A stretch of 64,000 nucleotides of DNA. Origin: Eledone cirrhosa. Its lineage: Eukaryota. The position numbers and the translations under genes are program-made. The notes below the pieces were generated by a model. That model searched no databases. It had not been told where the DNA came from and saw nothing but the letters and a program-made list of their open reading frames with translations. The stretch lies in NCBI GenBank assembly GCA_964016885.1, contig OZ024742.1:221464001-221528000 (forward strand), read 5' to 3'. This document shows, piece by piece, positions 53,948 to 63,999 of this stretch (its first letter is position 1; every line of letters begins with the position of its first letter).

Positions 53948-55262
53948 TATTTAATATAGAAGTAACTTATACAGGACTAGAACTGATTCATTCGTATGAA
54001 ATCATCAAGCATTCCTCATAATTTCATAAGAATGAAACAGTTCTAGTCCTGTAGAAGCCATTTATATATATTAAATATTGATGTATTGAGTACCTTATTT
54101 ACTGTGAATACCCCCGATTGAAGTCGGTATCTACACACACACACACACACACACATATATATATATATATATATATATAGTAATAATAATAAAATTGAAG
54201 ACTAAAATCCAGAGAGGGCTCGATAAGGAAAATATATATCAAATATATAAGAACCGAAGAGCAAATATTTATTAAAATAACAGATTAAAGTTTAAGCAAA
54301 GAATCGCTGCTTTCACCCTTAACGGGATCTTCTGAAACTAACAAAGTCAATCTGTAAACGCAGAACTGGATATTTCAAAAAACGTTGCAACCGGAGGAAG
54401 ACAGGAAGACGATACTTTGGTTCATGGTGACGTTCGCTGGCAAAGAACGGGAAAAAACGAATAATACGTCATTAATAGGAGCGGTGAAAAACAAAAACGT
54501 GCAAGGACAGAACCACGTTTATGGTATAAAAGAGGTCGTAGACTAATGTTCTCTAAGTGGTGCATAGAGACGTTCTCTGGCAATGAACGAAAAAACGAAG
54601 ATAATAAGTCATATGTGGAACGTGGAGAACAATAGCGTGCAAAGACAAAACCACGTAAATGGTATAGCAGAGGTCGTAGACTAAAATTCTAACTAGGAGA
54701 CCGAATGAATCTCCGCTACAGAGTTAATAACAAAGTAAATAAATACAATACAGAAGTAATAGGAACAAATAAATACATACACGCAAACAGATACGTACAT
54801 ACACAAGCATACACAAAACCTTACCATAGGTATACAAAACCACGCACATATAAATATGTGTATGTGTGTATGCTTGTGTACAAATAAATAAATAATTATA
54901 TAAACGTATATAAGTAAATAAATACGTATATAACAAGCGCACACACATACCTACAAATAAATACAAGAAGGTTCGGAGACGTAAGTCAACTAAAACAAGA
55001 AGTACACATATACACACACCCACCATACGTACGAACCTGCATACTCACGCAGACGCAAAACTCCCAAATACACATAACCAAGCCCTAAATACCAGAATAT
55101 GTAAAAATTATACGCCAAGACAGTCAAATATACGTACGAGAAGGTATACATACCTTCACAAAACATACGGGTAATATATACTTACCTATGCAAATAAGTA
55201 AAGGAATAAACAAAACATATACTTAGCTCCCACATCAAGACGTAAATATCCACGTATAGATC

Positions 55263-55754
55263 AGCCCGATTCCTACAATTACAGTTAGTACTAACTACAG
55301 GGTTGCACGTGTTCCTACGGCTAGGTATTTTAGCCGTTGTCCCCTATCCGGGAAATGCCTCTCTAGTAACATTGTCTACAAATGTAAGGTTGTAACACCC
55401 ACGTCCCGTAGGGCCTACATAGGGTTAACCGCCAATAGTTTCAAGCAGCGTCTTTACATGCATACCCATTCTTTTCGTTACCCTCTAAGAAGGAATATGA
55501 CGTCACTTTCAGCTTATATCTGGAGTCTAAAAGACAACCACACCCAATATAAGTTACACTGGGAGATCCTAGTTAGGGCTAGATCGTATTACGGAAATAA
55601 AAGACCATGTGACCTCTGCGCCGCTGAGGCCCTGGAAATACTCTACGCCACAGACCACATCTTAAACAAAAAATCTGAGGCAATTTCGGCTTGTAAACAT
55701 AAATTGCACAAAACTTTCCTGTATTACAGCCCTACGTTATACCCTAACGGATAG
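55263..55754 (+). pseudogene. PLE GIY-YIG endonuclease fragment
   Basis: Open frame from 55263: CPLSGKCLSSNIVY...YIGLTANSFKQR..H...TSLSAYIW...CDLCAAE...LNKKSE...CKH. Confidence 0.85.
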
Positions 55755-56680
55755 CACGATCTATACGTGGATATTTACGTCTTGATGTGGGAGCTAAGTA
55801 TATGTTTTATTTATTCCTTTACTTATTTGCATAGGTAAGTATATATTACCCGTATGTTTTGTGAAGGTATGTATACCTTCTCGTACGTATATTTGACTGT
55901 CTTGGCGTATAATTTTTACATATTCTGGTATTTAGGGCTTGGTTATGTGTATTTGGGAGTTTTGCGTCTGCGTGAGTATGCAGGTTCGTACGTATGGTGG
56001 GTGTGTGTATATGTGTACTTCTTGTTTTAGTTGACTTACGTCTCCGAACCTTCTTGTATTTATTTGTAGGTATGTGTGTGCGCTTGTTATATACGTATTT
56101 ATTTACTTATATACGTTTATATAATTATTTATTTATTTGTACACAAGCATACACACATACACATATTTATATGTGCGTGGTTTTGTATACCTATGGTAAG
56201 GTTTTGTGTATGCTTGTGTATGTACGTATCTGTTTGCGTGTATGTATTTATTTGTTCCTATTACTTCTGTATTGTATTTATTTACTTTGTTATTAACTCT
56301 GTAGCGGAGATTCATTCGGTCTCCTAGTTAGAATGTTAGTCTACGACTTCTGCTATACCATTTACGTGGTTTTGTCTTTGCACGCTATTGTTCTCCACGT
56401 TCCACATATGACTTATTATCTTCGTTTTTTCGTTCATTGCCAGAGAACGTCTCTATGCACCACTTAGAGAACATTAGTCTACGACCTCTTTTATACCATA
56501 AACGTGGTTCTGTCCTTGCACGTTTTTGTTTTTCACCGCTCCTATTAATGACGTATTATTCGTTTTTTCCCGTTCTTTGCCAGCGAACGTCACCATGAAC
56601 CAAAGTATCGTCTTCCTGTCTTCCTCCGGTTGCAACGTTTTTTGAAATATCCAGTTCTGCGTTTACAGATTGACTTTGTT

Positions 56681-56731
56681 AGTTTCAGAAGATCCCGTTA
56701 AGGGTGAAAGCAGCGATTCTTTGCTTAAACT
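56681..56731 (+). ncRNA. Hammerhead-like motif with variant core CAGAAGA; mirror copy at 54289-54339 on the minus strand
   Basis: AGUUU-CAGAAGA-UCCC guuaa GGGU-GAA-AGCA..UGCU-U-AAACU: all three stems form. Confidence 0.65.
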
Positions 56732-56902
56732 TTAATCTGTTATTTTAATAAATATATATATATATATATATATGGAAAGTTATATTTAAATTGTTGTGTT
56801 ACAACTAGTAAATATTTATAACTGATATAAAAGCACTCGACAAATATTTGGAGTATATTTACAATATTAAATAAATGGAAACTATATTTATAAAACCATA
56901 TT

Positions 56903-60889: not shown

Positions 60890-61775
60890 ATATACAGGTG
60901 TCTGTGATCTATATGCACTGGTCCTAGACACACACACATATGTATATATACACAACAACACCACCAGCTCTCTTCCATTCTCCTTCTCTGTCTCCTCTCA
61001 CTCTCTCTATATCTCTATTTCAATCAACTCTCTCACAACCACTATCTCTTTCTCTCCACCCTTCTCTCTCTCATTTTGTGAAGGCACTTAGAAAACCCCC
61101 TATCTCGGGAACCCGTGGTCCGATTTACGCTAAAGTTGTTTTATTCCATTTGTATTCCCATTTCAAGGGCAACTTCTTTTCAAAGTATTTTCCCATTATG
61201 CACCCTTTTGGCTGTATTACATTACAGACAAGCAAGCAATCACAGACTTTTAGTAATATATATGTGTGTATGTGTGTGTGTGCGTATATATATATATATA
61301 TATATATATATATATATATATATATCCTAGTATATATATATATATATATATATGTATGTATGTATGTATGTATGTATGTATGTATGTATGTATATGTATG
61401 TATATATATATATATATATTATGGAATACTGTTGGCTTTTTGCTACAATGTTTTCTATACTTTTCATTTATATATATATATATATATATATATATATATA
61501 TATATATATATATATATGTATGTATGTATGTATATATATGTATATATATATATATATATATATGTATATATATATATATATATATATATATATATATATA
61601 TATATATATATATATATATATATATTGTTATACTTTGGGAGGGTCATGTTGCCAATAAGAAACACACGCACCAGTTGCTTTCACTTCAGTTTATTATATA
61701 TTTATAAATTTACAAATTTATAAATTTATAAATTTCTGGTTGGTTGGTTCCACAACCAGATAGTTGTTTATATAT

Positions 61776-61820
61776 AGTCATAGTCCTTTCGTAACACACT
61801 CTGTGACCTCTTCAGTGACT
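61776..61820 (-). ncRNA. Minimal type I hammerhead in the PLE 3' pseudo-LTR
   Basis: AGUCA-CUGAAGA-g-GUCAC agagugu GUUAC-GAA-AGGACU-A-UGACU. Confidence 0.78.
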
Positions 61821-62034
61821 GGGGATTCCTTTCTTTGTTTCTGTGCCTCTCCTTTGTTCTGTCCTACGCCATTTTGTTTCTGTGTGTGTGTTGTGTGCTC
61901 AGTCTGCGCATGCGCCACATCCGGGTGTCTGTGTGTGTTTATGTTCATTTATCTATTTGTTTATTTATTTATTTATTTACATGTTACTGGTTGGTTGTTT
62001 GTTCTATGTGTGTGTGTGTGTTTTCATTTTGTCC

Positions 62035-63999
62035 TTAATTGTAAGTTGTGATGTTGCTGTTCCACTCATATTTTCTATTTAATTTTGGTTGTAATTCTTT
62101 TATGTTTATTGCCTCTGTAATTTGTCTAAACATTGCATCTTTTCTGTGTGTGGATTCTATTTTTATTTCTATGTTCTCTAATTTACCCTTGTGTTCTATC
62201 TTAGCATGTTGGTAGAGTACAGATGATTCTTTATTATCTTGAAGGTCTCACCAGTGTTCATTTATCCGTTCCCCTATACTACGAGCTGTCTCACCTATGT
62301 ACACTATATTTTTGTCTCTACATTGTCCTTCAGTACATCTTATGCTATACACTACATTTCTAGTTTTACAGTTAATATGGGGGCTTATTTTACAGGTTAT
62401 ACATTTCTTATCTATACATGAGGGTCTTTGAAAAGGGTATGTCTTGCTAATAAGTGTTTTTACGGAGGTACCTGGTCTTTCTACTATCTTAATATTGAGT
62501 TTATGTTTATTTAGGGCCCTTCTAAATTTGTAGGCTAGTTCGCCTCTAGGGGTTGTATCGATGAACATTACACTCTGGTATTTATTGCTATCATACCATG
62601 AGTTTATTCTATTAGCCTTGTTCCTAGTTCTTTCTATTCTATTCCAAAATTTGCTCCTATACAAGGGGCAGGTCCCATTTATGTCATTATTTACCATTTT
62701 TTCCCATTTGGTTCTGGCTCCTCTATACACTCTGATTCTATCTCTCTGATTGTAGCCAGAGAACTGCATACGGTGGATGAAGTGTTGTATGTGTCTCTCT
62801 AGTTCTTCGGGGTTGCACATGCGGGACACATTTTTCATCACCCGTACCAAATCCGCAATCAGTATGTTGATTTTGGTATGGTCCGAAATGGCCGAGTTTC
62901 GGTGGATCAGATGTTTGGAAGTCATGGGTTTGGCATAATGGGAATGGAGGATTTGTTTTTTGTTGTTAATGGTATCTAACCAGAGCTCTGTGTCTAGTAC
63001 AGGTAATCGATGGTTGGGGTGTTTACTTGGGTAGTCTATAGTAACTCTAATGCTTTGGTGGATGGAGTTTGCTATTTGCTGGATGCTTTCCCTTGTGTTT
63101 TTCTCTAGTTCCTGACTGTTCTCTAGTGGGGGTGTCTTAACTACGATGTTTATGTCATCTACGTAGCGGGAGTACATTATCAGGGTTAAGGGGTCTTCTA
63201 ATTGTTCTTTAAGTTTAAGTTTAAGTCTACTGTCCCACCATACCATGAATAAGTTAGCTATGTCGCCTGCAATGCTAACACCAATGGCTGCTCCTTCCTC
63301 TTGGGCATATGTTTTTCCATTAAATTTGAACATATGTTCCTTAAGGGTTAGTTTTATGCTGGCCCATACCGCATGTGCAATCATTTTCTTCAGTTCATCG
63401 TGGTTTTCGGGTGTCCGTATGGCTCTGGTCCACCCGTTCCATCTATCTGTGTGGGTTTTCTTGGCCATTGAGGTAATGGTAGGTGGTCTGCCTCTTGCTG
63501 GTCTTGTAGGGCACAGGTTGCTAAGGTCATATGTGTCTAGGTAACTATTACTATAGGTAAGCTTAAGTAGAGGTCCCAGCTCACTGGTATCAATCCCACG
63601 GAACTCAACCTTGCTCTCACTGATCATTTCTACGCATTTCTCCACAGCAAAATCCACGTCAATAGATGGATACAGGGACACAACATCCATACTGCCTATT
63701 ATGCAGTTTGTTAGGTCCCCAGATCGGTTACCCACGCCGATTCTGCTGAGGAGGTCCTCCGTGCTGTCACATACATCTGGGGACATTTCAATGATGGGGC
63801 GTATGATCAGGGAGAGGAAGTAGGACAGTCTGTAGTTACTAGCAATGTTAGCTCCACAGACTGGCCGTGTTGGTGGTCCCGCGACAGGGTCACAGCCCGT
63901 TTTATGGTCTTTTCGAAGCCCATACAACGCCGGCACGTCATTGTTCCAGGCCTGGAAGTTGTTGGCAGTCCTTTTGTTGGGCTGCATTATATTCGTCCA
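62035..63999 (-). CDS. PLE RT/GIY-YIG ORF with an in-frame TGA at 62248-62250
   Basis: Frame open from the window edge; 70 more codons after the TGA (DLQDNKESSVLYQH...RQITEAINI...LNRKYEW) to TAA at 62035-62037. Confidence 0.85.

Follow-up and report, generated by a model that had tools for sequence, protein, structure and literature searches.

The stretch of DNA analysed here, called the window, comprises 64,000 nucleotides at C3:221464001-221528000 of the 3.0-Gb Eledone cirrhosa genome (GCA_964016885.1). Towards its end lies a nest of inverted-repeat units with hammerhead ribozyme motifs, which we relate to Penelope-like elements (PLEs). Within the nest is a non-coding element, named e58 here (58556-59012, minus strand), that carries a candidate hammerhead with a four-piece wiring (58572-58641, minus strand). 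Both e58 and its motif were absent from a first-pass annotation of the same DNA, and the motif is the most unusual item of the nest. Published work is cited from excerpts of the papers concerned.

Foldback units and their parent elements

Five inverted repeats had been proposed in the nest and all proved real, at about the coordinates claimed: 53947-54078; 54265-55262/55758-56755; 56854-57112/57439-57697; 59167-59221/59459-59512, plus a hairpin at 59220-59294; and 59582-60451, with a third copy at 60570-60890. The units are also unrelated in sequence, as claimed, given that blastn between the 3' regions of six families returned matches in none of 15 pairs. Unit 1 (53947-54135, plus strand) is a 130-bp foldback with a one-sided tail and belongs to an older family whose copies share ~80% identity. 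Unit 2 (54265-56755, plus) is a 5'-truncated Hydra-type PLE that includes the GIY-YIG C-terminus (to 55754), the 3' untranslated region (UTR) and a 998-bp inverted copy (99.7% identity between arms), and it also holds a 75-bp internal inversion; having retained the GIY-YIG C-terminus, it is not non-coding. The 85-bp tail of its inverted arm (54180-54264, minus) is the sequence found directly upstream of the open reading frame (ORF) in tandem copies (loci L141 and L133). Unit 3 (56860-57691, plus), a second Hydra-type PLE, consists of the 3' 575 bp and a 252-bp inverted copy, and the 87-bp tail of its inverted arm (56773-56859, minus) lies directly upstream of the ORF in locus L033. Unit 4 (59167-59512, plus) is a short foldback derived from the 3' end of a Neptune/Nematis-type family, with 90% identity to 61622-61872. 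Unit 5 (59582-60890, plus) is assembled from fragments of a non-coding monomer of 537 bp, two of them in tandem and the third inverted, and e58 is a copy, truncated at its 5' end, of a non-coding tandem element of 633 bp. A (TA)n target tract occupies 57690-57918, and further tracts lie near 54155, 56755, 58540, 59015 and 61285-61625.

A PLE 3' repeat had also been placed in the nest, and a minus-strand ORF for reverse transcriptase (RT) and GIY-YIG runs from the window end to about 62100. This 5'-truncated window-end PLE (61622-64000, minus) has an RT, a C-terminal GIY-YIG, a CX4CX2C linker and CCHH. A single in-frame TGA at about 62250 interrupts the last part of the endonuclease (EN), with the frame open on both sides. 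A selenocysteine reading of this TGA was set aside, a nonsense change being simpler. The ORF matched Pfam RVT_1 weakly (E 6.5e-4). Just past the window, a different PLE-like ORF (L040:2353-4570) stands head to head with the 5' break of the window-end PLE.

Parent elements were sought elsewhere in the genome. The end of unit 3 recurs as many near-identical copies (40 of 892 candidates scored), and longer copies of the family hold a full or long ORF for RT and GIY-YIG between inverted arms of ~230-3,400 bp. The end of unit 2 sits on a 713-aa ORF, which also occurs in tandem (L141). The proteins of both families contain RWR, DKT, CxCX5C, CxxC and CxH, with RWR in place of RWK; the Hydra clade is defined by DKT, an RWK-like motif, a CxCX5C linker, CxxC and CxH, and no CCHH (Craig et al. 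2021, PMC8557442). Insertion into (TA)n, partial tandems (pseudo-long terminal repeats) and a one-sided tail of 85-87 bp were seen for both units, with a canonical hammerhead core in unit 3 and a U4A core in unit 2. Judged by these motifs, units 2 and 3 are members of two active Hydra-type PLE families with full ORFs elsewhere. A single ORF with RT and GIY-YIG, as in EN-containing (EN+) PLEs, was found in the families of units 2, 3 and 4. The parent of unit 4 has a CX2-5CxxC linker and CCHH in its C-terminal EN, the features of Neptune and Nematis; unit 4 belongs to the same family as the window-end element, one whose motifs would fit either clade. Unit 5 and e58 are without an ORF (longest ATG-initiated frames of 39 and 18 aa), and tblastn of both against three PLE proteins gave no match. 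The proposed mix of autonomous and non-coding ribozyme retroelements is supported, with parent ORFs for units 2-4 and none in unit 5 or e58.

With regard to ribozymes, a descriptor returned four exact-core type I hammerhead motifs at the locus (none in 40 dinucleotide shuffles) and five when relaxed (shuffle mean 0.075); a stricter one had missed variants with an extra base or a mismatch at position 10.1. Family alignments raised the number to 11 type I sites in five families, with five exact cores, two family-wide CAGAAGA cores and four damaged ones. Exact cores occur in the unit 3 hammerhead (57583-57648, plus, with an 8-nt palindromic stem III) and its mirror copy (56903-56968, minus), in the minimal hammerheads of unit 4 (59314-59357, plus) and the window-end PLE (61777-61820, minus), and in one site of unit 5 (60751-60833, plus), where the first stem I pair is broken. 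The other two unit 5 sites (59754-59836, minus; 60201-60283, plus) share its long stem II and 10-nt palindromic stem III and have damaged cores, as do both sites of unit 1 (54010, plus; 53966, minus). These four of the 11 sites look dead from their sequence, and unit 1, whose family consensus holds a type I hammerhead, has no intact ribozyme in this copy. The first-pass annotation had counted nine hammerheads with all three stems, probably leaving out the two damaged sites of unit 1; the claim of all three stems holds loosely, and of these probable nine, five have the exact core, two the U4A core and two a damaged one. Type I hammerheads with a palindromic stem III, which it also described, are present in units 3 and 5.

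The type I motif of the unit 2 family (56681-56731, plus; mirror copy 54289-54339, minus) is better called hammerhead-like, having the family-wide CAGAAGA (U4A) core. Its pattern has 17,642 exact matches genome-wide, with A at core position 4 in 100/100 of those listed. A literature search for U4A hammerheads found no paper. This family is a natural experiment on whether cleavage is required by PLEs in the first place.

Origin of the nest

A segmental duplicate of window positions 45750-61325 lies on the same sequence at C3:186334000-186347000 (loci L131 and L132; 94-99% identity) and provides a pre-insertion record. This paralogous stretch (186.33-186.35 Mb) retains units 1, 4 and 5 and has plain microsatellites at the positions of units 2, 3 and e58. 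It also lacks one short interspersed nuclear element (SINE): two SINE-like copies, inverted relative to each other, lie at window positions 53213-53402 and 53768-53957, and the second is missing there. The empty TA sites indicate serial insertion into TA tracts and support the (TA)n targeting that had been suggested. In the fetched loci, 3' ends pointed outward in 46/51 opposite-strand neighbours. When the first 100 matches of the unit 2 motif were taken in genome order, the same held for 16 of 17 such neighbours no more than 7 kb apart. The one-sided 85-87-bp tails correspond to sequence upstream of the ORF. Hence, the interval is very probably a stack of separate 5'-truncated PLEs inserted into TA microsatellites, the 3' end of each being present a second time as an inverted copy. 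That the inversions are instead assembly artefacts is scarcely credible: the arms of unit 3 are indeed 100% identical over 259 bp, but units 1, 4 and 5 recur in the diverged paralog, the one-sided tails distinguish the arms, and the polarity is uniform genome-wide.

Published work suggests how such foldbacks may form. With a purified PLE protein, cutting and extension occur on both strands, and two internal start sites define the tail (Frangieh et al., PMC11167929). The enzyme of an element would likely cut both strands of a TA tract, after which element RNA could be copied inward from both cut ends to give the foldback, with the two internal RT start sites accounting for the tail. Units 1, 5 and e58 would be mobilised in trans. 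Within this scheme e58 would be a passenger, a non-coding tandem element predicted to self-cleave through its four-piece hammerhead.

The first-pass annotation had regarded the nest as a candidate for an undescribed system. Its foldbacks correspond to the inverted 5'-truncated copies that Craig et al. 2021 (PMC8557442) describe for PLEs, together with a tail and a (TA)n bias, and opposite-strand hammerhead pairs 100-700 bp apart have been known since 2014 (Cervera and de la Pena 2014, PMC4209133). We therefore hold it highly probable that what was described there is known PLE architecture. The likeness to EN+ PLE insertions of the Hydra clade (PMC8557442) extends to partial tandems, an inverted upstream copy, a one-sided tail, (TA)n targets, a 3' type I hammerhead, DKT and CxCX5C without CCHH; a U.U at 10.1/11.1 and cleavage after U also occur in File S2 of that paper. 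Compared with the elements in the excerpts of that source, those at this locus differ in tails of 85-87 bp, the CAGAAGA core of the unit 2 family and long 3' UTRs. Minimal PLE hammerheads (PMC4209133) likewise have a palindromic or short stem III, an extra base after A9 and opposite-strand pairs 100-700 bp apart in truncated PLEs; unlike the motifs described there, units 1 and 2 have a stem III of 4-5 bp with a loop, so that a dimer would not be needed.

Some observations weigh against this account. The tails measure 85-87 bp against the 30-40 bp described, the clade names are based on protein motifs, and parent ORFs for units 1, 5 and e58 were not found. Rfam hammerhead models, proposed earlier as a check, matched none of the sites (E<=1 for the window, E<=10 for the region), the scans otherwise returning microRNA-type hairpin noise, and single-sequence folds of eight type I or control motifs gave unremarkable z-scores of -1.45 to +1.05.

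It could also be argued that the foldbacks are a separate, undescribed ribozyme class that transposes as whole hairpins, in the manner of miniature inverted-repeat transposable elements or hairpin RNA. The family of unit 1 consists mostly of short hairpins of similar size, and its arms are more alike within than between copies (1.74 vs 2.97 mismatches over 9 nt in 19 copies, which were found with a hairpin query). However, copies of one family differ widely in arm length, the arms are attached to PLE ORFs, and some members of the unit 1 family have more unique sequence on the 5' side and bigger foldbacks. We consider this alternative highly improbable, and for units 2-4 it is already largely refuted.

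To place the nest in a genome-wide context, we used 40 evenly spaced 10-kb stretches of the genome (400 kb) as controls. These contained 56 type I and four permuted motifs, with none in the reversed controls; such a density of 60 motifs per 400 kb would extrapolate to roughly 4x10^5 and describes a very hammerhead-rich genome. The 10 kb of the window with the nest holds seven motifs and five inverted repeats, numbers reached in 2/40 and 1/40 control stretches, respectively. Both counts follow TA runs across the controls (rho 0.59 for motifs and 0.66 for inverted repeats), in agreement with the proposed (TA)n association. The nest is thus dense without being unique: it falls in the upper tail of a genome-wide pattern and is, in itself, ordinary PLE debris.

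These numbers also bear on whether the nest is a selected locus that serves the host as a source of double-stranded RNA (dsRNA), small RNA or circular RNA. Transcription across the 998-bp inverted repeat, whose arms are 99.7% identical, would give long dsRNA. Nonetheless, the paralog is without the largest units, similar nests occur in one or two of the 40 controls, 4/11 cores are damaged, and the ribozymes of each foldback lie on opposite strands, so that we regard a host function as very unlikely. Dimer action and circles, which had been proposed for this locus, meet the same obstacle: with the two ribozymes of a foldback on opposite strands, a transcript carries one in the sense orientation, so neither dimerising within one transcript nor release of a circle is expected. 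The sole same-strand tandem pair, in unit 5, has one damaged core. None of the contigs from three runs of one sample spanned the unit 2 junction.

A four-piece hammerhead candidate and the Naiad elements

The e58 motif departs from the type I sites in that its order is reversed and its core is opened between A9 and stem II. Along the minus strand, the candidate is composed of a stem II 5' strand (58641-58638), helix X (58636-58631), stem III' (58627-58623), a predicted cleavage site after 58622, stem I (58621-58615), the stem II 3' strand (58610-58607), GAAA (58605-58602) and CUGAUGA (58578-58572). The GAAA stands ahead of CUGAUGA, and stems I and III are in register around a UA site. Its pattern has 7,522 exact matches genome-wide (control 0), in arrays of up to nine copies; among the first 30 matches listed on C1, (TA)n begins within 75 nt of 20, and the remaining 10 continue into the monomer that follows.

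Over 44 distinct copies, the four-piece fold paired 92% of cells with double changes in 7/27 pairs, and slid controls reached 26-44%. Stems I, II and III were paired in 99, 99 and 96% of cells, and the strand at the 5' end of e58 paired with stem II in 98.9%, with one compensatory change. In 1.49 Mb, a four-piece descriptor gave 90 matches in two unrelated families and one in reversed sequence. In the second family (L142:4947-5046), a non-coding tandem family with a ~770-bp period and 1,369 candidates, other helices are connected in this same way, and a bulge takes the place of the kink-turn-like loop of e58. The e58 single-sequence fold had a z-score of -2.48. Other readings of the motif were tried. 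As a plain type SGC hammerhead with a downstream stem II, four distal pairs were 96% paired without a double change, and the poor downstream pairing led us to replace that strand by the upstream one; type II and selenocysteine insertion sequence (SECIS) readings were rejected by eye.

In a kink-turn, two helices are joined through a 3-nt bulge, after which come tandem G.A and A.G pairs. In sequence, the stem III extension of e58 fits this pattern, with G23 and A59 invariant and A24 and G58 at >90%. A kink-turn at this position would fold the stem III extension back towards stem I.

Among permuted hammerheads, e58 is closest to types SGC and CSG (Eckert et al. 2023, PMC10085705), with which it shares the reversed order of cleavage site, GAAA and CUGAnGA and a short linker between stems I and II. 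It has the SGC order, with stems I and III in register. Unlike the scheme in that paper, where CUGAnGA and a stem II strand are kept together, e58 has this strand at its 5' end, and its block C is not unbroken: pairing directly 3' of CUGAUGA amounts to 0-1 bp in 72/72 matches. In the excerpts of PMC10085705, SGC and CSG come only from metatranscriptomes or metagenomes and not from genomes of known organisms. Like unit 5, e58 also resembles non-LTR (long terminal repeat) retrozymes (Cervera and de la Pena 2020, PMC7229834; Li et al. 2026, 10.64898/2026.07.22.740005), which are non-coding tandem monomers with one ribozyme each, proposed to depend on PLEs. Retrozymes have a type I hammerhead per unit, as found in the unit 5 family; the e58 ribozyme, by contrast, is not type I. 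Moreover, the monomers of unit 5 and e58 measure 537 and 633 bp against about 300 bp, and they have PLE-type inverted copies and tails.

Naiads are a PLE clade for which Craig et al. 2021 (PMC8557442) reported no canonical hammerhead in the excerpts we cite, with eight marked 'half core'. We read the Naiad consensus file of that paper by eye around each displayed CUGAnGA, an approach that misses motifs split by line ends. The four-piece wiring, with different helices, was present in 9/54 Naiad consensus sequences, including two octopus and three coral families, and these forms mostly have G-C at 10.1/11.1. An intact CSG order with all three stems was seen in a further six consensus sequences (File S5, parts 13-16), of which at least two come from nematodes. 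The octopus Naiads and e58 have in common a 23-nt spacing from GAAA to the core and an internal loop compatible with the kink-turn pattern. e58 further shares the (TA)n targets of Naiads. Having no ORF, it differs from them and lacks the N-terminal GIY-YIG, CxC and DKA by which the clade is recognised. A Naiad-type origin or helper for e58 is nonetheless what we propose. Because no autonomous Naiad was found in this genome with two patterns and in the fetched loci, which does not show absence, the helper is one that we infer.

Taken together, the e58 motif is likely to form a self-cutting RNA, and it seems reasonably probable that it represents a new hammerhead connectivity, real and cleaving. 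With similar, moderate confidence we suggest that Naiads and their non-coding dependants carry active hammerheads in reversed cyclic order, with an intact CSG form in some families and, in others, a four-piece form opened between A9 and stem II and held by a kinked extension of stem III together with an outer helix. This four-piece connectivity falls outside the six permutations thought possible, and an animal genome would contain it thousands of times. A literature search found no report of the four-piece form or the Naiad motif, noting that the supplements of Eckert et al. 2023 and of the 2026 retrozyme preprint could list such motifs; Naiads are mentioned without a four-piece form in the excerpts of PMC13159263 and of the Li et al. 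2026 preprint (10.64898/2026.07.22.740005). If true, this would explain the reported lack of hammerheads in Naiads, separate the CUGAnGA block from stem II against the assumption that they are inseparable, and add animal genomes to environmental RNA as a place where non-circularly permuted ribozymes occur.

Several points count against these suggestions. The e58 copies are related, so that the covariation cells represent few events; in 44 rows, stem II shows only one double change, no more than 69.5% of the cells of the outer helix are paired, and the stem III pair 27-52 is broken in 4/44 copies. An all-column covariation scan (41/49 rows kept, eight truncated or mutated rows out) was swamped by G-U pairs and relatedness. 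Positions 10.1/11.1 of e58 are a pyrimidine mismatch or A, not G-C. In the passages of PMC8557442 examined by eye, no bivalve Naiad had a four-piece or CSG form.

Considering these points, the e58 motif might also be a hammerhead-derived structure that no longer cleaves and binds a protein, serving as a handle for RT/EN or for a kink-turn-binding protein. The missing G10.1-C11.1 pair and the open link between A9 and 10.1 would agree with this, as would the 17,642 exact copies of the unit 2 family with a U4A core and the finding that PAc insertion in vitro needed no ribozyme cleavage (PMC11167929). On the other hand, CUGAnGA, GAAA, U16.1 and a non-G H17 are in register in two genome families and in Naiads, with the caveat that the search patterns partly fixed the core letters in the genome families, and the Naiad forms have G-C at 10.1/11.1. 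Loss of cleavage is a possibility to keep in mind, if a rather unlikely one, and a cleaving four-piece hammerhead is the reading we prefer.

Other features of the window and genome

Another foldback lies at window positions 4242-4458 and 4627-4807, with an exact type I hammerhead at 4286-4356 (minus), and adjoins a copy of the unit 1 family. Elsewhere in the genome, L285 (C28:110000001-110010000) holds a tandem array similar to classical retrozymes, whose units of about 420 bp contain a type I hammerhead.

The remainder of the window contains a long interspersed nuclear element (LINE) family with an APE endonuclease, RT and PHD finger (17677-20916, 29471-32957 and shorter copies), several copies of which are 91-98% identical. 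Satellites occupy 5968-13511 and 38075-41493, with a 67-bp unit repeated 112 times and a 25-bp unit repeated 136 times. A tRNA-like Rfam match at 2579-2638 (32.9 bits, over the gathering score) is probably the head of a SINE.

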